Source: Deltaproteobacteria bacterium
Lineage (GTDB): Bacteria > Desulfobacterota > Anaeroferrophillalia > Anaeroferrophillales > Anaeroferrophillaceae
NCBI GenBank assembly: GCA_019306045.1
Contig: JAFDMG010000004.1
Coordinates: forward strand, 1,203-39,638
Direction of reading: 5' to 3'
DNA: 38,436 nucleotides
Below the pieces are notes generated by a model. That model ran no database searches. It was not told where the DNA came from and saw only the letters and a program-made list of their open reading frames with translations. Positions 4,344-38,436 of the stretch are shown piece by piece. Position numbers and translations under genes: made by a program. Positions within the stretch are counted from its first letter, which is position 1; the number at the start of each line of letters is the position of its first letter.

Positions 4344-5132
4344 TCACCGCTTGATGTTGTTGGCCGTCTGCAGCATCTCGTCGGCAGTCTGGATGGCCTT
4401 GGAGTTGATTTCATAAGCCCGCTGGCCGACGATCATCTTGACCATCTCATCGACCACCACCACGTTTGACATCTCCAGGAAGCCCTGGCTGATGGTCCCC
4501 AGGCCGTCGTTGCCCGGGGTGCCCAGGGTGGCCGGCCCGGAGGCGTCGGTTTCCAGGAACAGGTTCTTGCCCAGGGCCTTGAGGCCGGAGGGGTTGGAAA
4601 ACCAGCCCAGTTCGATGGTGCCCACCTGGGTCGAGGTGGTCTGCCCGGCCTGAACGACGGAAACCGTGCCGTCGTTGCTGATGGTGATCGAGGTGGTATC
4701 GGTGGGGATGGTAATCGGCGGCTGCAGGGGGTAGCCGTCAGCGGTGACGATGGCCCCGGTACTGTCCAGCTTGAAGGAGCCGGCCCGGGTGTAGGCGGTG
4801 GTGCCGTCGGGCTGGAGAATCTGGAAAAAGCCGTGGCCGTCGATGGCCATATCCAGCTCGTTGCCGGTCTCGGCGTAGTCGCCCTGGGTAAAGATCTTGT
4901 AGACGGCCACCGGCTTGGTCCCCAGGCCGATCTGGATGCCGGTGGGCAGCTCGTTGCCGGCGGCGGACAGGGTGCCCGGCTGGGAATAGGCCTGGTAAAG
5001 CAGGTCCTGGAAATCCGGCCGGCTTTTCTTGAAGCCGCTGGTATTGACGTTCGCCAGGTTGTTGGCCACCACGTCGATGCTCAGCTGCTGGGCCTGCATG
5101 CCGGTGGAGGCGGACCACAATGCACGGATCAT
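4344..5132 (-). CDS. flgG: Flagellar distal rod protein FlgG
   Basis: 262 aa. The N-terminus is [36 protein letters not shown]. The C-terminus is [39 protein letters not shown]. Both are canonical for FlgG. Confidence 0.95.
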
Positions 5133-7068: not shown

Positions 7069-8436
7069 TCACTTTTTCGTCAGCCCCCAATCCCGCAGGC
7101 GATACTCGATCTTGCGGACGCTGATCCCCAGCTCCCGGGCCGCCGCCTGCTTGCTGCCGTGCCGCTCGAGGGCGCTGAGAATCATCTTCTTCTCCATCTC
7201 CTTGAGGCTCATGCCCGCCCAGGGGTCATCGGCGGCGGTGCCCGGCGGCGCTTCCTCCCCGGCGTCGGCCGCCGGCAGGGAGATGTCCTCGGGGCGGATC
7301 GGCCGGTCCTTGGCGTAGATCAGCGCCCGCTCGACGACGTTTTCCAGTTCCCTGACGTTTCCCGGCCAGGCATAGGCCTGCAAAAGCTCGTAGACTTCCC
7401 GGTCCGGGTACTGCGGCGGCCGCTGTTCCCGGGCAGCCGCCCGGTCGATGAAATACTTTACCAGCAGCGGCAGATCGTCCAGCCGCTCCCGCAGGGGCGG
7501 CAAGGAAACAACCACCACGTTCAGCCGGTAGAACAGATCTTCCCGGAAGCGCCCCGCCGCCACCAGCCGGCGGAGGTTCTGGTTGGTGGCCGCAATGATG
7601 CGCACATCGGCATAATGGGTCTGCTCGCCCCCGACCCGCTGGTATTCGCCGCTGACCAGCACCCGGAGAAGCTTGGCCTGGATGGCCAGCGACATCTCGG
7701 CGATCTCGTCCAGGAAAAGCGTTCCCCGGTCGGCGAGGGCGAATTTACCCTTCTTGTCCCGCACCGCCCCGGTGAAGGCGCCGCGCACGTGGCCGAAAAG
7801 TTCGCTTTCCAGCAGGCTTTCGGCCAGGGCGGCGCAGTTGAGGGCCACCAGAGGCTGGGCCGCCCGGGTGCTGAGGGCGTGCAGCGACCTGGCCACCAGC
7901 TCCTTGCCGGTGCCGGTTTCCCCCTCGATGAGCACGGTGGCCGCCGTCGGCGCCACCTCCTGGATGGTCTGGAAAAGGCGGGTCATCACCGGCGTCTGGC
8001 CGATAAAGCCGGCGAAGCCGTGGCGCTCCTTGAGGGCGGCCAGCAGGGCCCGGTTCTGGCGCACCAGGGAGATTTTTTCCCCGATCCGCGCCAGGACGAT
8101 TTCCAGCTCCTCGATGTTCACCGGCTTGAGCAGATAGTCCTCCGCCCCCTTTTTCATCGCCGTCACCGCCTCGCCAACGCCCCCCTGGCCGGTGATCACC
8201 ACCACGTGGAGATGGGGATCGAGCTTTTTTGCCGCCGCCAGCAGCTGCAGGCCGTCCATCTCCGGCATCTTCAGGTCGGTAAGCAGGATGTCCACGTCCC
8301 CCCGGCGCAGCCGCGCCAGGGCCGCCCGCGGGCTGCTCTCGCCGGTCACCGGGTAGCCGTCCAGCTGCAGCAGGGAAACGAGGCCGCTTACCGCCCGGGG
8401 TTCGTCGTCGACAACCAGTATCCGTGGTTTCTCCAT
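7069..8436 (-). CDS. Sigma-54-dependent response regulator (NtrC family; FlrC/FleR-like flagellar activator)
   Basis: Receiver domain (MEKPRILVVDDEP...LLTDLKMPEMDG). AAA+ sigma-54 interaction domain (GETGTGKELVARSLH, GAFTGA, ESELFGH). C-terminal Fis-type HTH (AARELGISVRKIEYRLRDWGL). The start is set at ATG 8434-8436. The 87-codon upstream extension in the ORF track overlaps the kinase gene and is Pro/Arg/Ala-rich junk. Confidence 0.9.
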   Translation of the reverse strand: MEKPRILVVDDEPRAVSGLVSLLQLDGYPVTGESSPRAALARLRRGDVDILLTDLKMPEMDGLQLLAAAKKLDPHLHVVVITGQGGVGEAVTAMKKGAEDYLLKPVNIEELEIVLARIGEKISLVRQNRALLAALKERHGFAGFIGQTPVMTRLFQTIQEVAPTAATVLIEGETGTGKELVARSLHALSTRAAQPLVALNCAALAESLLESELFGHVRGAFTGAVRDKKGKFALADRGTLFLDEIAEMSLAIQAKLLRVLVSGEYQRVGGEQTHYADVRIIAATNQNLRRLVAAGRFREDLFYRLNVVVVSLPPLRERLDDLPLLVKYFIDRAAAREQRPPQYPDREVYELLQAYAWPGNVRELENVVERALIYAKDRPIRPEDISLPAADAGEEAPPGTAADDPWAGMSLKEMEKKMILSALERHGSKQAAARELGISVRKIEYRLRDWGLTKK

Positions 8437-13655: not shown

Positions 13656-15749
13656 TCAGCCAATGGCAATTCTCCCCAGGGACTGCACCTTCACCGACGG
13701 CGGAATCTCGTTGTGGGAAATGACCGTCAGCCGGGGCACAAACCGCTCCAGCAGCCGCCGCAGGTGGAAGCGGACGATGGGCACCCCGAGCAGCACCGGC
13801 TTGGCGTTGACAATGGCGAACTTTTCCGACAGCTGCTTGATTTTTTCCACCATTTCGTAGACCACGTTCGGTTCCAGGGAGAGGAAAGCCCCGTGGTCGG
13901 TCCGCTGGATCGAGTTGTTGATCAGCTCTTCCAGCTTCGGGTCCAGGGTCATGACATAGAGCATGCCCTCGTCGTTGACGTAGGCCCGGGTGATCGTCCG
14001 GCCGAGTTCCTGGCGGACATACTCGGTGAGGATGTCGACGTCGCGGATCTGCATGGTGTACTCCGCCAGGGTTTCGATAATCGTCATCAGGTCCTTGATC
14101 GGCACCTGTTCCCGCAGCAGGTTCTGCAGCACCTTCTGCAGCACTCCCCAGGGCACCACACTGGGCACCAGGTCTTCCACCGCCTGGGGATATTCCCGGT
14201 TCAGGTTGTCCACCAGCTTCTGGACGTCCTGGCGCCCCAGCAGTTCGTGGGCAAATTCGCGGATCTTTTCCACCAGGTGGGTGGCCACCACCGTCGAGGC
14301 GTCAACCACCGTGTAGCCGGCCAGCTGGGCCCGCTCCCGCTGCTTTTCCTCGATCCACAAAGCTGGCAGGCCAAAGGCGGGTTCGGTGGTGGGAATGCCC
14401 TCGATGGCCGGGGCGTTCTCGTCGGGATTCATCGCCAGGCAGTAGCCGACCATCACCTCGCCCCGGGCCACCTCGTTGCCCTTAATCTTGAGCACGTAGT
14501 CGTTGGGCTTCAGCTGCAAATTGTCGCGGATATGGACCGAGGGCAGGATAAAGCCCATGTCAAGGGCGAACTGGCGGCGGATCAGCTTGATCCGCTCCAG
14601 CAGGTCGCCGCCCTGGGAGGCATCCACCAGGGGAATAAGGCCGTAGCCGACCTCCAGTTCGAGGGGATCGACCCCCAGCAGGTTTTCCACCTGCTCCGGC
14701 TCCTCGGTCACCTGTTCCTCCCGGGCCTGTTCCAGGGCCGCCTGCTTCTCCTCCTCCCGCCGCTGGCGGGTGAGCAGGAAGGCCGAGAGGCCGGCCAGGC
14801 CGGCCAGGGTGAAGAAGGAGAGCTTCGGCAGGCCGGGGATGATGCCGAAAAGGAACAGGGCCACGGCGGCCAGCATCAGGGCCCGGGGATAGGCGGTCAG
14901 CTGGGACCCGAGGTCTTCCCCCATGTTGGTCTCGGAGGCGGTCCGGGTGATGATGATCCCCGAGGCGGTGGAGATGATCAGGGCCGGGATCTGGGAAACC
15001 AGGCCGTCGCCGACAGTGAGGATGGTGTAGGTCTGGGCCGCCTCGCCCATGGACATCCCCTGCTGAAAAGTGCCGATGATGAAGCCGCCGATGATATTGA
15101 TCAGGGTGATAATGATGCCGGCAATGGCGTCGCCGCGCACGAACTTGGCCGCCCCGTCCATCGCCCCGTAAAAATCGGCCTCCCGGCGGATCTCTTCCCG
15201 CCGCTGCCTCGCCTCCTGCTCGCTGATCAGGCCGGCGTTGAGATCGGCGTCGATGCTCATCTGCTTGCCGGGCATGGCGTCGAGGGTGAAGCGGGCCGCG
15301 ACCTCGGCGATCCGCTCGGCGCCCTTGGTAATGACGATGAAGTTGATCAGCACCAGGATAAGGAAGATGATGGTGCCGACCACGTAGTTGCCCCCGACGA
15401 CGAACTGGCCAAACGCCTTGATCACCTGGCCGGCGGCGGCGGCCCCCTCGTTGCCGCGCAGGAGAATCAGCCGCGTCGAGGCCACGTTCAGCGACAGGCG
15501 GAACATGGTGGTCACCAGCAGCAGGGAGGGAAAGATGGAAAACTCCAGGGCCTTGAGCACGTACATGGAGATCAGGAGAATGATGATCGCCACCGTGATG
15601 TTCATGCTCAAAAAGGCATCGAGCAGCACGGTGGGCAGCGGCACGATCATGATCAGCAGGATGCCGATCACTCCCACCGCCAGCACCGCGTCCTTGTTGT
15701 CCACCAAGAGGGCGCGGGAGATCTTGAATGTTCCGGTTCCTTCAGCCAT
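13656..15749 (-). CDS. flhA: Flagellar type III export apparatus protein FlhA
   Basis: About 697 aa with multiple N-terminal TM helices. It carries the conserved FHIPEP block (GAERIAEVAARFTLDAMPGKQMSIDADLNAG) and the cytoplasmic FlhAc domain. ATG at 15747-15749; the ORF track uses the TTG one codon upstream (15752). Confidence 0.97.
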   Translation of the reverse strand: MAEGTGTFKISRALLVDNKDAVLAVGVIGILLIMIVPLPTVLLDAFLSMNITVAIIILLISMYVLKALEFSIFPSLLLVTTMFRLSLNVASTRLILLRGNEGAAAAGQVIKAFGQFVVGGNYVVGTIIFLILVLINFIVITKGAERIAEVAARFTLDAMPGKQMSIDADLNAGLISEQEARQRREEIRREADFYGAMDGAAKFVRGDAIAGIIITLINIIGGFIIGTFQQGMSMGEAAQTYTILTVGDGLVSQIPALIISTASGIIITRTASETNMGEDLGSQLTAYPRALMLAAVALFLFGIIPGLPKLSFFTLAGLAGLSAFLLTRQRREEEKQAALEQAREEQVTEEPEQVENLLGVDPLELEVGYGLIPLVDASQGGDLLERIKLIRRQFALDMGFILPSVHIRDNLQLKPNDYVLKIKGNEVARGEVMVGYCLAMNPDENAPAIEGIPTTEPAFGLPALWIEEKQRERAQLAGYTVVDASTVVATHLVEKIREFAHELLGRQDVQKLVDNLNREYPQAVEDLVPSVVPWGVLQKVLQNLLREQVPIKDLMTIIETLAEYTMQIRDVDILTEYVRQELGRTITRAYVNDEGMLYVMTLDPKLEELINNSIQRTDHGAFLSLEPNVVYEMVEKIKQLSEKFAIVNAKPVLLGVPIVRFHLRRLLERFVPRLTVISHNEIPPSVKVQSLGRIAIG

Positions 15750-15764
15750 CAAGCAGTCTTTCTT

Positions 15765-15877
15765 GTTAGCTGTTAGCTGTTAGCTGTTAGCTGTTAGCTG
15801 TTAGCTGTTAGCTGTTAGCTGTTAGCTGTTAGCTGTTAGCTGTTAGCTGTTAGCTGTTAGCTGTTAGCTGTTAGCTG
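15765..15877. repeat. Perfect tandem heptanucleotide array, (GTTAGCT)x16 plus 1 nt
   Basis: Counted directly: 16 uninterrupted, mismatch-free 7-bp units. The array occupies almost all of the flhB-flhA intergenic spacer. Confidence 0.98.
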
Positions 15878-15883
15878 GACCGT

Positions 15884-17017
15884 TCACAGTTTCCTGCCCT
15901 TCAGTTTGTAGACATAGGCCAGAACCTCGGCCACCGCCTGGTAAAGATCGACGGGGATCACCTCGTTGAGCTGCACCAGCTTGTAGATCATCCGCGCCAG
16001 GGGCTTGTTCTCCACCACCGGCACCCCGTGCTCGCGGGCCACTTTCTTGATGTTCTCAGCGACGATGCCGGCTCCCTTGGCCACCACCAGCGGCGCCGCC
16101 GAACGCTGCTTGTCATAGAGGAGGGCCACCGCCAGGTGCACCGGGTTGGTGATCACCACGTCGGCCCGGGGCACCTCCTGCATCATCCGCTGGCGGGCGG
16201 CGGCCATCTGCAGGCTGCGGATCCTCGACTTGAGCTGCGGGTCCCCTTCCATCTGCTTGAACTCGTCCTTGATTTCGTCCTTGGTCATCTTCAGGTCCTG
16301 GATCCACTCCCAACGCTGGTAAAGGTAGTCGAGCACGGCGAGGGCGGTGAGCACCAGGGAGCAGCGCCAGAGAATCTGGAAAGAGGTCAGGGAAAGGAAA
16401 ACCAGGATCCGGTTGACCGGCTGGTTGAGCAGGCCGAAAAACTCGTGGAAATGGGCCCGGTAGACGGTGAAGGCCACGTACCCCAACACCGTGATCTTGA
16501 AGAGGGATTTTATCAGGTCCACGAGGGAACGCAGGGAAAAGATGCGGCCGAAGCCGGTGATCGGGTTGATCTTGGAGAATTTGGGGATGATCGGCTTGGT
16601 GGTGTAGAGGAAGCCCACCTGCATGATGTTGGCGAGGATGCCCACCACCACCAGGGCCACCATCAGCGGCCCCAGCAGGAGGATAAACTGCTGCATGGCA
16701 AAAAGAGCCAAGTGAAAAAAATTATTTTGGCTGAGTTCCATGAGCAGATAGTTCTGCAGAACATTCTGCAGCATCAGCCGGGAAGTCCGCAGGAACCAAT
16801 GGCCGCCGAAATAGAAAAAAGCCAGCCCGGTGAGCAGGATCATCGCCGACGAAACCTCGACGCTGCGGGCCACCTGCCCTTCCTTGCGGGCGTCCCGGAG
16901 CTTCTTGGGGGTCGGTTTCTCGGTTTTGCTCGGGTCCGTTTTACCAGCGGCTCGCGGCGCTGAAGTCGCCCAACCCGCCCTTTCAGGGCCCAAACCAGGC
17001 AGCTTTCCCGCTTCCAC
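15884..17017 (-). CDS. flhB: Flagellar type III export apparatus protein FlhB
   Basis: N-terminal KTEKPTPKKLRDARKEGQVARSVEV, four TM helices, and the autocleavage NPVH motif in VVITNPVHLAVALLY. The start is GTG at 17015-17017 and is somewhat uncertain. Confidence 0.93.
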   Translation of the reverse strand: MEAGKLPGLGPERAGWATSAPRAAGKTDPSKTEKPTPKKLRDARKEGQVARSVEVSSAMILLTGLAFFYFGGHWFLRTSRLMLQNVLQNYLLMELSQNNFFHLALFAMQQFILLLGPLMVALVVVGILANIMQVGFLYTTKPIIPKFSKINPITGFGRIFSLRSLVDLIKSLFKITVLGYVAFTVYRAHFHEFFGLLNQPVNRILVFLSLTSFQILWRCSLVLTALAVLDYLYQRWEWIQDLKMTKDEIKDEFKQMEGDPQLKSRIRSLQMAAARQRMMQEVPRADVVITNPVHLAVALLYDKQRSAAPLVVAKGAGIVAENIKKVAREHGVPVVENKPLARMIYKLVQLNEVIPVDLYQAVAEVLAYVYKLKGRKL

Positions 17018-22140: not shown

Positions 22141-22908
22141 TCACTTTTTCTCTTTGGCCGCCGCCGGCTCCTCCACCGCCGGCAGCCAGCCGGCCAGGCG
22201 GATGACCAGCCGGCGGTTGCGGGCCCGGTGCTCGGGCAGGTCATTGGGCAGCAGCGGCCGGTCGGGGCCGTAGGCGGCCAGGGACAGGCGGTCGGCGGCC
22301 ACCCCGAAGCGCTGCAGCTGCCGGGCCACCACGTCGCCGCGCGCCGCGGCCAGCACCCAGTTGTCCGGAAACCTTTCCGTGTGCAGGGGAAAGTTGTCCG
22401 TATAGACCTCGATCACCAGCGGCACGGCCTGGCGGCCGAGAAACGGCCCCAGGAGCGCCAGCAGCCGCCGGCCCGCCGGCTTCAAGCTGGCATCCAGCGT
22501 CCCGAAAAGCAAATCGCTTGCCATCTCCAGGCAGAGATCGTCATCCACCACCGCCAATTTAACCCGGGAGCGGCCGACCTGTCGTTCCAGATCGTCAAGC
22601 AGCCGCGACAGGGCGGGCGACAGCTTGCGCAGGGCTGCCAGGTCGGCGATGGACCGCACCTGGCTGACCGGCGGCACCACCAGGGGCTTGACCTCCGGCA
22701 CCAGGGAACTCCCGCCGCCGACGTTCATCACCCCGAGGGAATCGGGAAAGGCGCTGAACATCTTCTTGAGCACCTTGTTGTCCATCGACGACATGGAAAT
22801 CAGCAGCACGAAAAAGGTCAGCAGCAGGATCAGCAGGTCCGAAAGGGTGACCATCCAGCCGTTGCTGCCCTCCACCCGCTGCTCGGCGGTCTGGCGCGGC
22901 CTGATCAT
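22141..22908 (-). CDS. motB: Flagellar stator protein MotB (canonical, with channel Asp)
   Basis: WMVTLSDLLILLLTFFVLL carries the conserved Asp 7 residues before the (A/T)FF motif, as in E. coli MotB D32. The C-terminal OmpA-like peptidoglycan-binding domain ends in NRRLVIRL. Confidence 0.85.
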   Translation of the reverse strand: MIRPRQTAEQRVEGSNGWMVTLSDLLILLLTFFVLLISMSSMDNKVLKKMFSAFPDSLGVMNVGGGSSLVPEVKPLVVPPVSQVRSIADLAALRKLSPALSRLLDDLERQVGRSRVKLAVVDDDLCLEMASDLLFGTLDASLKPAGRRLLALLGPFLGRQAVPLVIEVYTDNFPLHTERFPDNWVLAAARGDVVARQLQRFGVAADRLSLAAYGPDRPLLPNDLPEHRARNRRLVIRLAGWLPAVEEPAAAKEKK

Positions 22909-23720
22909 CGGCCCGCTCCCCCGGCCGGCGGCTGGCCGCCGCCGGTGATCGGCAGGGTGAAGTCCTTGTAATGGTAAAGGCGCGGCCGGCGGCCGGCCGC
23001 CCCGCTGGCCGCCGGACCGCCCCGAACGTCGATCTCCACCCGCCGCTCCCTGGCGGCCGGGCCGCCGGCGGCGGCGACCGCCCCGTATCCCCGCATGCTC
23101 ACCACCGCCGGGTCAAGGCCGCCATGGCGAACCAGGAAGCGGAAAACCGCCGCCGCCCGCAGCGCGGCCAGGGACAGGTTGGAAGCATAGGGACCGCCTT
23201 CTTTGACCGGCACCCGGTCGCAGTAGCCCTTGACCACCACCTGCAGGTCCTCCACCGGCCGCAAGATGCCGGCCAGCCGCAACAGCACCTGCTTCCCGGC
23301 CGGGGCCAGCTGGTAGGAACCGCTGGCAAAGAGCAGCCGGTTGCGCAGGTCAACGGCCAGGCCGTCGGCGGTTTTTCTCACCTTCACGTCCTCCAGGATG
23401 CCCCGCTGGGCCAGAAAATCATGCAGCGAGGCCCGCACGTCAGCCGCGCTTTCCGTCAGCGGCGAAGGCGGCTGCAGCTGCTTGTTCCGCCCCCCGGCCG
23501 CCAGCTTGAACCCTCCCGGCATGAACCCGAAACTGCCCAGCAGCGAATCGAGGGCCACCAGGCGCCGCTGCTCGTCCACCACCGCCACCGAATAGAGCAG
23601 AATAAAAAAAGCCAGCAGGATCATGCTCAACGCCGCCATCAGCACAACAAAGTTTCCCCGGCCGCCGGCGGTGGCCAGGGAACGGTACCTTTTCTCGCTG
23701 CCTTCCCGGACGGCGGACAC
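22905..23720 (-). CDS. MotB-like / OmpA-domain protein lacking the channel Asp
   Basis: 271 aa with a single N-terminal TM helix (FVVLMAALSMILLAFFILL) that aligns to the MotB TM. Ala replaces the Asp at that position. The C-terminal OmpA-like domain is SNLSLAALRAAAVFRFLV...RRVEIDV. It lies between motA and motB, and its stop overlaps the motB start. Confidence 0.75.
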   Translation of the reverse strand: MSAVREGSEKRYRSLATAGGRGNFVVLMAALSMILLAFFILLYSVAVVDEQRRLVALDSLLGSFGFMPGGFKLAAGGRNKQLQPPSPLTESAADVRASLHDFLAQRGILEDVKVRKTADGLAVDLRNRLLFASGSYQLAPAGKQVLLRLAGILRPVEDLQVVVKGYCDRVPVKEGGPYASNLSLAALRAAAVFRFLVRHGGLDPAVVSMRGYGAVAAAGGPAARERRVEIDVRGGPAASGAAGRRPRLYHYKDFTLPITGGGQPPAGGAGR

Positions 23721-32576: not shown

Positions 32577-34229
<1,653 letters not shown>

Positions 34230-36999: not shown

Positions 37000-38061
37000 T
37001 CAACGCAAGATGATGCCGCCGGCCCCCTCGCCGGCGGCGGTAAAGCGGCCCACCTCCCAGGTCGACTGGCCGGCGGCGGCAAAGGCCTGCCGCACTCGCG
37101 GCAGGCAATCCGGCGCCACGGCCAGCAGCAGGCCGCCGGAGGTCTGGGGATCAAACAGCAGGTCAACCAGCAGGTCGTCGGCGGCGCCGGCCTCCCGGCG
37201 CACCCGGCAGCCGAAAAATTCCCGGTTGCGGCTGCCGCCCTCCGGGAACATGCCCATGGCGACATATTCCCGCGCCCCCGGCAGCAGGGGCACCGCCGCC
37301 AGCTCGACGACCGCCGTCAACCCGCCGGCGGCCACCATCTCGCTCAAGTGGCCAAGGAAACCGAAGCCGGTAATGTCGGTGCAGGCGTGCACCGCCGGCC
37401 GCCAGGGAGCGGCGGAGTCTTCCGGCGGCAGCCGGTTCAGGGCCGCCATGTAAGCAAAAGCCTCCTCCAGGTCCGCCGCCGCACAGAAGCCGGCTTTCAG
37501 GGCGGTGCTCAGCACCCCGTTGCCCAGGGGCTTGGTGAGCAGCAGCCGGTCGCCCGCCCGGGCGCCGGTATTCCGCCAGAAGCGCTGCGGATGCACGAGG
37601 CCGGTGACCGCGAGACCGTACTTGATCTCCGGGTCCTCGACGCTGTGGCCGCCGGCAAGCACCGCCCCGGCCTCGGCAATTTTGGCCAGGCCGCCGGCCA
37701 GAATCCGGCGCAGGTAGTCATTGTCCAGGGTACGGATGGGGAAAGCGACAATGTTCATCGCCGTCAGGGGGTCGCCGCCCATGGAGTAGACATCGCTGAA
37801 GGCATTGGCGGCGGCAATCTGGCCGAAAAGCCAGGGATCATCGACCATGGGCGGAAAAAAATCCAGGGTCTGCACCAGCGCCCGCTCGGCGTCGAGCCGG
37901 AAAACGCCGGCATCGTCGGCCCCCTCAATGCCCACCAGCAGCCGGTCGTCCACCGGCAGCGGCAGGTCGCGCAAAATCGCCTCCAGGTCGCCCGGACCTA
38001 TCTTGGCGGCTCAGCCGGAAGCGGTTACCATGGTGGTCAGTCTGATCTGCTCGACGGTCAT
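37000..38061 (-). CDS. selD: Selenide, water dikinase (selenophosphate synthetase) SelD, selenocysteine-containing (in-frame TGA at 38011-38013)
   Basis: The ORF track gives only residues after the TGA. Extending upstream in frame gives MTVEQIRLTTMVTASG-U-AAKIGPGDLEAILRDLPLP. This restores the conserved SelD N-terminal glycine-rich loop, with Sec where E. coli SelD has Cys17. The rest is canonical SelD/AIR-synthase fold (DDAGVF, DFFPPMVDDP, FGQIAAANAFSDVYSMGG). Confidence 0.85.
37985..38010 (-). promoter_or_regulatory. Candidate bacterial SECIS element in selD mRNA
   Basis: The mRNA after UGA reads GCCGCCAAGAU-AGGUC-CGGGC-GACCU. This is a 5-bp stem with a G-rich 5-nt apical loop. The stem begins 11 nt after the UGA, and the apical loop starts at about +16. 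The stem is short. Confidence 0.4.
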
Positions 38062-38330
38062 GGTTTTAGCCTGTCAGCTCAGTGCTGTCCGGTTAGGTGC
38101 TTGCATATCGTCAGCCAGTGCTGTTTTCAGCGCTTTTGGCGCTCGCTTGCCTGTTTTGCCAGCGGCTCATGTCGCTAAAGTTGCCAAACTCGCCCTTTCA
38201 GGACTCAAACAAGGCAACTTTTTCACGCTCCCATCGCCGGGAAAAACAACGGCAGTTCACGATGTCGCGCCGAAAAACAGCCCTGGTTGCCGACTTTAAA
38301 AATGCCAGAAGTATACCAGACACTGCTGCT

Positions 38331-38436
38331 GTTAGCTGTTAGCTGTTAGCTGTTAGCTGTTAGCTGTTAGCTGTTAGCTGTTAGCTGTTAGCTGTTAGCT
38401 GTTAGCTGTTAGCTGTTAGCTGTTAGCTGTTAGCTG
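38331..38436. repeat. Perfect tandem heptanucleotide array, (GTTAGCT)x15 plus 1 nt, truncated by the window end
   Basis: Counted directly. It has the same unit and the same orientation as the array at 15765-15877. There are no mismatches, and it continues to the last base of the window. Confidence 0.98.

Follow-up and report, generated by a model that had tools for sequence, protein, structure and literature searches.

Intergenic arrays of tandem heptamers, one of them inside an operon, are already present in the bacterial literature (PMC4692102, PMC4679880). Here, a further array of this kind was analysed, which lies between the flagellar genes flhB and flhA in a 38,436-nucleotide stretch of DNA (hereafter the window) from a Deltaproteobacteria bacterium of the family Anaeroferrophillaceae, Desulfobacterota (assembly GCA_019306045.1, contig JAFDMG010000004.1, positions 1,203 to 39,638). 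The plus strand reads (GTTAGCT)n and the sense of the flhB-flhA mRNA is (AGCUAAC)n. The array belongs with the known intergenic heptanucleotide simple sequence repeats (SSRs), as a head-to-tail tandem with a unit in the 1-11 nt range and a length beyond chance, and brings to them a new unit, host lineage and gene context; by unit sequence it falls outside all named heptamer families, and a literature search found no paper on AGCTAAC, in any rotation, as a bacterial repeat. The explanation that we moderately favour is that the array is a slippage-generated, tolerated and length-unstable SSR which fills an unconstrained intercistronic spacer.

TAACTGA direct repeats are carried by marine Beggiatoaceae and by some Cyanobacteria and Bacteroidetes (MacGregor 2015, PMC4679880). 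Both these and the AGCTAAC arrays consist of tandem heptamers that lie between genes and are spread across many loci of a genome; they occur in the forward direction just upstream of start codons, where they overlap the place at which a ribosome-binding site is expected, and have stop codons in every forward frame, as seen here with TAA in all sense frames of an array 15 nt before the flhA ATG. For both, the genes next to the arrays are random with respect to function, the distribution over the phylogeny is patchy, long arrays are found in some Bacteroidetes and any role is putative. They differ in the unit, as AGCTAAC has a palindromic AGCT core and stop codons on both strands, and in folding, as TAACTGA is reported to be structureless in either orientation, whereas the AGCTAAC array is predicted to fold at -31.3 kcal/mol (sense) and -60.2 kcal/mol (antisense, a stable rod). 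The Beggiatoa genome has 2-6 units per array compared with the 16 present here, and the host here is a Desulfobacterota lineage.

The G-rich heptamers GGGAATC of Xanthomonas and GGGGA(C/T)T of Nostoc are intergenic and found genome-wide as arrays of 2-26 units (Rehm et al. 2015, PMC4692102), and include a perfect 26-unit array within an operon, between pecE and pecF; no function was found for these repeats (PMC4692102). Much length variation between close relatives and inverted arrangements are shared with AGCTAAC, as is the polarity, since the G-rich strand lies downstream on the coding strand and the C-rich strand is the sense strand upstream. The G-rich repeats form G-quadruplexes, which AGCTAAC cannot do, forming instead a zipper hairpin of AGCU, and the hosts differ. 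The cyanobacterial STRR sequences, attributed to Mazel et al. in 1990, are reportedly short tandemly repeated repetitive heptamers. They are mentioned for Calothrix (PMC4692102). The analogy with STRR that had been drawn in the original prediction, made from the letters of the window alone, is apt, as both are tandem heptamers dispersed in intergenic DNA, and one Tychonema array (locus L098) mixes AGCTAAC with AGTCAAC and AGTCATT; STRR are defined, however, by other units and by their presence in heterocystous cyanobacteria, and the host here is a Desulfobacterota lineage.

In Haemophilus influenzae, the (ATCTTTC)n repeats of hmw1A and hmw2A are heptamer arrays in a transcribed 5' leader, with slippage-changed copy number and a hairpin built from the repeats (PMC12721329). 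There the repeats pair with a separate G-rich arm, the hairpin in the 5' untranslated region (5'-UTR) is cut by RNase III, and hmw1A expression falls in inverse proportion to heptamer number (PMC12721329). The array analysed here has a location of the same type, among promoters, 5'-UTRs and reading frames, in the intercistronic leader of flhA; it differs in pairing with itself and in having no partner arm, and folding predicts no effect of length on the start region. Among long prokaryotic SSRs with units of 5-11 nt, 7 nt is the most over-represented unit length, which is ascribed to polymerase slippage (Mrazek 2007, as summarised in PMC4679880 and PMC4692102). As far as these summaries go, there is no difference in kind from the present array, which has a 7-nt unit, a length far beyond chance and an intergenic position, and adds a further unit and host.

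Anatomy of the array and history of the spacer

The array (15764..15877, minus strand) was recovered by Tandem Repeats Finder with a period of 7, 16.3 copies, 100% matches, no indels and a score of 228. On direct reading, positions 15765-15876 are 16 full GTTAGCT units and 15877 is an extra G. A two-unit 14-mer probe, allowing up to two mismatches, had 29 matches in the window against 0.04 expected from dinucleotide-preserving shuffles of the window, and all were confined to this array and a second (38328-38436). Outside the two arrays, neither isolated copies nor proto-repeats of the heptamer were found in the window. On the flhB side, a 6-nt linker (15878..15883, minus strand), read directly, separates the array from the stop codon TGA at 15884-15886, and on the flhA side a conserved leader (15750..15763, minus strand), identified by alignment and spacer comparison with relatives, reads AAGAAAGACUGCUUG before the AUG and contains a weak Shine-Dalgarno-like AAGAAAG. 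The distance from the array to the flhA ATG at 15749 is 15 nt, and to the alternative TTG at 15752 it is 12 nt. On translation, each of the six frames has a stop codon every 21 nt, as TAG in the plus-strand frames and as TAA in the minus-strand frames, and the AGCT core of the unit is self-complementary.

These features had been noted from the letters alone, and each was confirmed: the 16 mismatch-free units by Tandem Repeats Finder and direct reading, the distances of 6 nt from the flhB stop and 12-15 nt from the flhA start by the open reading frame (ORF) coordinates, the six-frame stops by translation of both strands and the self-complementary core by inspection. The stops follow arithmetically from a 7-nt unit that contains TAG/TAA. 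They probably account for where such arrays are tolerated and not for their purpose, and the emphasis on a stop cassette was overstated.

Of the flanking genes, flhB (15884..17017, minus strand) matches Pfam Bac_export_2 (1.5e-131) and its C-terminus aligns with those of relatives, although its upstream start is uncertain, the FlhB of relatives having 353 aa. flhA (13656..15749, minus strand) matches Pfam FHIPEP (1e-287), is 96% identical to protein P0001 and has its ATG at the position conserved in relatives; with the alternative TTG start the ORF is 13656-15752.

Several other identities were considered for the array. It is not a clustered regularly interspaced short palindromic repeat (CRISPR) array, as the 7-nt units are contiguous and without spacers, compared with repeats of ~24-48 nt and unique spacers. 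No known Rfam structured RNA family matched at gathering score anywhere in the window, and a restriction-modification role was rejected as AGCT is not avoided in the window (observed/expected 1.35). Folding of the array as single-stranded DNA was not significant (z = -0.6), giving no strong support to an expansion driven by DNA hairpins.

The history of the spacer was examined by comparison of the flhB-flhA junctions of nine contigs from relatives, none of which has a heptamer array in this spacer. The closest FlhA is 96% identical and belongs to assembly GCA_054011015.1, which at the DNA level is only 81.6% identical over 12.8 kb; the next (85-88% identical) come from metagenome-assembled genomes (MAGs) labelled Deltaproteobacteria or Dissulfuribacterales. 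By these FlhA matches, too, the host belongs to Desulfobacterota. In the closest relative, the spacer is 122 nt of unique, GC-rich sequence with a perfect 13-bp hairpin (z = -2.8), and in the group at 88% identity it is ~300 nt, unique and strongly structured (z = -4.9). In the alignment, homology breaks off at the flhB TGA and resumes at AAGAAA..TGATGGC just before the flhA ATG, so that the array occupies exactly the non-conserved interval, with about the length of the spacer that it replaced. As the array is missing in the closest relatives and their spacers are unrelated, it is a recent, lineage-specific gain, and the spacer that received it had been long and unconstrained beforehand.

A long, non-conserved flhB-flhA spacer is the norm in this clade, as the structured spacers of the relatives indicate. 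More distant junctions were collected by a metagenome search with the FlhA N-terminus (56-76% identity among the matches listed). In these 69 junctions the median spacer is 3 nt and the commonest arrangement is a 4-nt overlap; ~20% have a spacer of >100 nt, and none of the 69 has a long perfect repeat in it. The tight linkage of flhB and flhA that had been taken as usual therefore holds for the 69 diverse junctions and fails in this clade, in which spacers are 122 to ~300 nt. As the nearest relatives lack the array, it is not a conserved device.

The second array (38328..38436, minus strand; Tandem Repeats Finder, sequence and selD frame) has at least 15.6 perfect units of the same heptamer in the same orientation and extends beyond the end of the window. 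The contig probably stops here as the repeat could not be assembled through. It is located 266 nt upstream of the ATG of selD, also on the minus strand, and is AGCUAAC in sense relative to this gene. The flanks of the two arrays are unrelated to each other. Its position upstream of selD shows that the repeat is a dispersed family and not a feature of the flagellar operon, a link that had been missed in the original prediction.

selD itself (37000-38061, minus strand) encodes a SelD-like selenophosphate synthetase, and its frame passes an in-frame TGA at 38011-38013 to reach the ATG at 38061. This TGA, in the motif TASG-U-AAKIGPGDL, is probably a selenocysteine codon, and ORF finders break the gene at it. 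The selD leader at 38062-38100 reads CAGCACTGAGCTGACAGGCTAAAACC before the ATG, in which CAGC recurs at ~7-nt spacing; this may be what remains, in degenerate form, of an earlier array of heptamers, or chance.

Distribution, variability and orientation of the unit

When one genome per species was scanned with four units, AGCTAAC arrays came up in genome stretches that number at least 120 and, going by record titles, represent at least 10 phyla; one genome often contributes several stretches. The phyla include Bacteroidota, Gemmatimonadota, Chloroflexota, Acidobacteriota, Planctomycetota, Desulfobacterota, Pseudomonadota, Cyanobacteriota, Armatimonadota and Deferribacterota, among others. Among the matches listed, arrays have 4-34 units (median ~7), with at least 15 units in 15 of 122, and are often interspersed with one-base variants such as GGCTAAC, CGCTAAC, AGCTGAC and AGCTAAT. 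The genomes that carry them are heptamer-rich in general: the array loci hold 297 tandem repeats of period 7, compared with 30 of period 6 and 18 of period 8, and ~100 other heptamer units. This dominance of period 7 fits the over-representation of heptameric SSRs, as Mrazek 2007 is summarised in PMC4679880 and PMC4692102. In viral contigs, four-unit probes gave 10 matches for AGCTAAC and 32 for TAACTGA; controls of the same composition as AGCTAAC gave 7 for AGCTACA, in which the AGCT core is kept, 1 for ACGTAAC, 3 for AACTCAG and 2 for ACCAGAT. The AGCTAAC unit is therefore favoured and not unique.

In profiles of 113-116 array flanks, T is mildly over-represented 5' of the array and G is depleted 3' of it, and there are no conserved termini or target duplications. 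In MAGs of Desulfobacteraceae/Desulfotignum, AGCTAAC arrays are found inside a dispersed composite element with the arms TATATGAAAGCC ... GCTTTCAT, which resembles repetitive extragenic palindromic (REP) sequences or miniature inverted-repeat transposable elements (MITEs) and carries a GTGCCCGTCAGGGCATG hairpin motif that recurs on one side or on both (loci L001, 2241-2266 minus and 7194-7228; L009, 2380-2411; L036, 1154-1175 minus and 4568-4616). A REP- or MITE-like identity was rejected for the window arrays, as their flanks are unrelated, no conserved flank profile emerged across genomes, and such arms are present only in the Desulfobacteraceae loci; both window arrays lack these flanks.

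Two further arrangements were seen among the loci. In Acidobacteriota, Hymenobacter and Gemmatimonadales, heptamer arrays are often present as inverted pairs, with the reverse complement 10-60 nt later (L014, 3445-3518; L037, 1937-2056 and 6766-6851; L080, three pairs; L104, 1591-1672; L117, 2928-3004), which would form long hairpins built of repeats, and one such pair ends 4 nt ahead of the rplK start codon. In Tychonema sp. LEGE 06208 (L098, ~4629-4770), a single array alternates AGTCATT, the STRR-like AGTCAAC and AGCTAAC, showing that related heptamer units interconvert within one array.

Copy number could be followed in a proxy. Exact-protein look-ups of the window FlhB, FlhA and FliM found no other assembly of the species on record, that of FliQ found only a 632-nt low-coverage contig, and a metagenome scan for the array/flhA junction gave no matches. 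The same unit was therefore followed in a heavily sampled rumen Bacteroidales species, at a locus where the array adjoins the stop codon of FolD. Flanks of 2.36 kb are 100% identical in three assemblies, which have 9, 8 and at least 14 units; in the 8-unit assembly the array is fused into the next gene, and in the one with at least 14 units it contains an unresolved 100-N gap. A strain with 95% flank identity has degenerate relics only, and one with another FolD variant, at least 99% identical (P0129; locus L269), has one unit beside other heptamers. The AGCTAAC array class is hypervariable. By analogy, the length of the flhB-flhA array may also be variable; the variable copy number claimed for it thus stands for the same unit in rumen Bacteroidales and extends to the window locus by that analogy only.

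At these loci (L266-L270, and L003), the repeat shares its register with the last FolD codons and stop (AGC TGT TAG). The fusion in L268 runs the array straight into the coding region of the GT28 glycosyltransferase that lies downstream; the spacer and ~19 codons are gone, as a result of either a repeat-mediated deletion or misassembly.

The orientation of the arrays relative to genes was determined with a codon-position gene caller, which recovered the window operon correctly and agreed with Pfam in 19 of 20 spot checks. Polarity was counted over the matches listed (at least 120 stretches) with the unit read as AGCTAAC. A start codon on the same strand follows the 3' end of the array at 1-30 nt in 22 of 49 cases, compared with 4 of 42 in the opposite orientation (Fisher p = 2e-4), and an opposite-strand gene has its stop codon within 10 nt of that end in 35 of 59, compared with 11 of 66 (p = 9e-7). 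In the stop-codon class, the array very often supplies the stop of the gene with its first TAG (..NNN TAG CTGTTAGCTG..). In the start-codon class, to which the flhA array belongs, several arrays are so close to the start that a Shine-Dalgarno sequence has no room, as with the one 4 nt before rplK.

The two strands differ in predicted folding. (AGCUAAC)16 folds at -31.3 kcal/mol (z = -2.6) into AGCU helices of 4 bp with 3x3 loops between them, in many registers, whereas (GUUAGCU)16 folds at -60.2 kcal/mol (z = -6.3), with G-U pairs closing the loops to give a near-continuous rod. The same asymmetry was examined for all period-7 arrays in L001-L120. For other heptamer units, 19 of the 22 informative arrays located right after stop codons have the stronger-folding, G/U-rich strand as the transcribed one (p = 9e-4); of the arrays right before start codons, 13 of 19 have the weaker-folding strand in this role, a trend (p = 0.17). 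We infer from this that orientation is filtered by selection at the RNA level, with structure-prone strands barred from 5' leaders and tolerated or useful at 3' ends.

Explanations for the flhB-flhA array

Scans for sigma-70 promoters and intrinsic terminators found nothing in or beside the array spacer and only 15 nt are left before the ATG, so that flhA would be reached by read-through from flhB. By exclusion, flhB and flhA are probably co-transcribed through the array, which agrees with the original prediction of (AGCUAAC)n within a flhB-flhA mRNA. Partition-function folding was applied to the end of flhB, the array and the start of flhA, with 0 to 30 sense units. The mean unpaired probability predicted for the initiation region (-18 to +12) was 0.43-0.45 throughout, and the sense array was predicted to pair only with itself; when the array was flipped it became a tight rod, and the accessibility of the region was 0.375. 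Thermodynamics thus predicts no length-dependent tuning of flhA and would account for the orientation that is tolerated. The proposal of a length-variable spacer that tunes flhA was not supported as a rheostat based on structure, the predicted accessibility being flat from 0 to 30 units.

Under the favoured explanation of a tolerated SSR, the array would have arisen, and would stay uniform, by replication slippage in a genome and lineage prone to such arrays. The flhB and flhA genes of the clade are uncoupled by a long, fast-evolving and structured spacer, which in this lineage the array has replaced up to the conserved 15-nt flhA leader. The operon mRNA would carry a weakly folding, G-poor (AGCUAAC)n before the flhA start codon. 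Folding on itself alone, it would leave the initiation region as accessible as it would be without an array, and would be a self-contained filler with little or no effect on flhA output.

Three points weigh against this explanation. Two long arrays of one unit are present within 38 kb with no proto-repeats elsewhere in the window, and without local seeds an independent origin of each by slippage from chance seeds is not an easy explanation. The spacer that was replaced is nearly as long as the array, and this similarity might mean that spacer length or structure is under selection. The non-random placement of the arrays reflects selection on orientation and could mean a positive function, and not mere tolerance. 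For the window locus itself, variability and near-neutrality would follow by analogy and from the predicted folding.

The alternative that survives best, although we regard it as unlikely, is an expression rheostat, in which slippage would add or remove AGCUAAC units in the 5' leader of flhA, tune FlhA relative to FlhB and make flagellar assembly heterogeneous. The array is separated from the flhA ATG by 15 nt and has the orientation which, across phyla, is enriched just ahead of start codons; its class is hypervariable, and arrays that leave no room for a Shine-Dalgarno sequence, as that 4 nt before rplK, are at least compatible with initiation. About nine FlhA are needed per FlhB in the flagellar export gate, a textbook requirement which makes an uncoupled initiation of flhA plausible. 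Precedents are the hmw1A heptamers (PMC12721329) and Nostoc, in which deletion of heptamer repeats changes the regulation of a recO reporter (bioRxiv 10.1101/2022.06.06.494920). Against a rheostat, the predicted accessibility of the initiation region is unchanged from 0 to 30 units, the array pairs with itself and lacks a partner arm such as the G-rich region of hmw, and 4-bp helices with 3x3 loops are a poor substrate for RNase III. The array is also not conserved in relatives, and the same type of array lies upstream of the unrelated housekeeping gene selD and, elsewhere, beside functionally random genes.

A broader form of this idea is rather improbable in our view. Heptamer arrays would constitute a so far overlooked, cross-phylum, orientation-dependent post-transcriptional module, length-tunable by slippage, which here would set and diversify the FlhA:FlhB ratio. 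AGCUAAC would then serve just upstream of start codons as a structure-poor, stop-rich landing pad for initiation independent of a Shine-Dalgarno sequence, and GUUAGCU would form a stable rod from the stop codon, protecting or terminating the 3' end.

Less probable again is a multimeric binding platform, in which the RNA or DNA array would recruit many copies of a cold-shock-domain or S1 protein, at ~7 nt each, and would thereby govern translation, the stability of the mRNA or the local structure of the DNA. One cold-shock domain covers ~7 nt, which matches the unit length, and the unit is found in many phyla and keeps a strict polarity towards genes. The same idea was put forward for TAACTGA, for which S1, Csp and CsrA were named as candidate proteins (PMC4679880). 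For AGCTAAC, however, no such protein was identified, and the ~100 different units in neighbouring arrays of the same genomes are a poor fit to a single sequence-specific binder; moreover, the polarity extends to unrelated units and follows folding strength rather than sequence, and in viral contigs AGCTAAC has 10 matches against 1-7 for the control heptamers.

Spread of the unit across loci and phyla by a transposon, a MITE, recombination or horizontal transfer, with the array as cargo or footprint, is very improbable. It would suit the presence of two arrays on one contig without local seeds, the wide phylogenetic spread of the unit and the composite element with inverted arms and hairpin motif in Desulfobacteraceae, and horizontal transfer was favoured for TAACTGA (PMC4679880). 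The window arrays, however, lack the flanking motifs of that element, no conserved termini or target duplications emerged from the 113-116 flank profiles, neither window array has a transposase or integrase nearby, and control heptamers form arrays at comparable rates.

Least credible is an assembly artefact, with the array or its copy number resulting from reads mis-joined or collapsed at a low-complexity repeat. In its favour, the window itself stops inside an identical array, as contigs do at unresolved repeats, 21 of 122 array zones in public genomes are at contig edges, one public scaffold has a 100-N gap in its array and another fuses the array into a gene. Against it, the join is correct as judged by the gene order fliPQR-flhB-flhA-flhF-flhG, which is that of relatives, single 150-nt reads can span 113 nt, and arrays are present in complete or long-read genomes (19.7 units in the Maribacter chromosome NZ_CP138999); only the exact copy number of 16 is uncertain.

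Gene context and wider meaning

The array interrupts a minus-strand run of genes, fliP-fliQ-fliR-flhB-[array]-flhA-flhF-flhG, within a larger flagellar cluster that contains flgM to flgF, a sigma-54 two-component pair, fliA, fliLMNO and motAB. Two neighbouring MotB-like genes with MotB_plug and OmpA domains (22141-23720) are located downstream of a single MotA. Another tandem repeat in the window, a perfect 9-nt repeat at 32583-32618 (CATGCCGCC x4), is ordinary, as it encodes the usual C-terminal Gly-Gly-Met repeats of GroEL (Cpn60, ORF 32577-34226).

For the organism, the messages of the flhB-flhA locus are modest. The junction is probably length-polymorphic, and the array is a likely assembly break point that could serve as a marker for strain typing. 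Of wider interest are the recurrence of one heptamer in at least 10 phyla and the strand rule, by which the weakly folding strand is placed before start codons and the strongly folding strand runs from stop codons. This rule extends the pattern of the G-rich repeats of Xanthomonas and Nostoc to unrelated units and phyla, and gives a simple account, at the RNA level, of where heptamer repeats are tolerated. Should arrays directly upstream of start codons turn out to aid or adjust initiation, they would amount to a translational element that is both widespread and easy to engineer.

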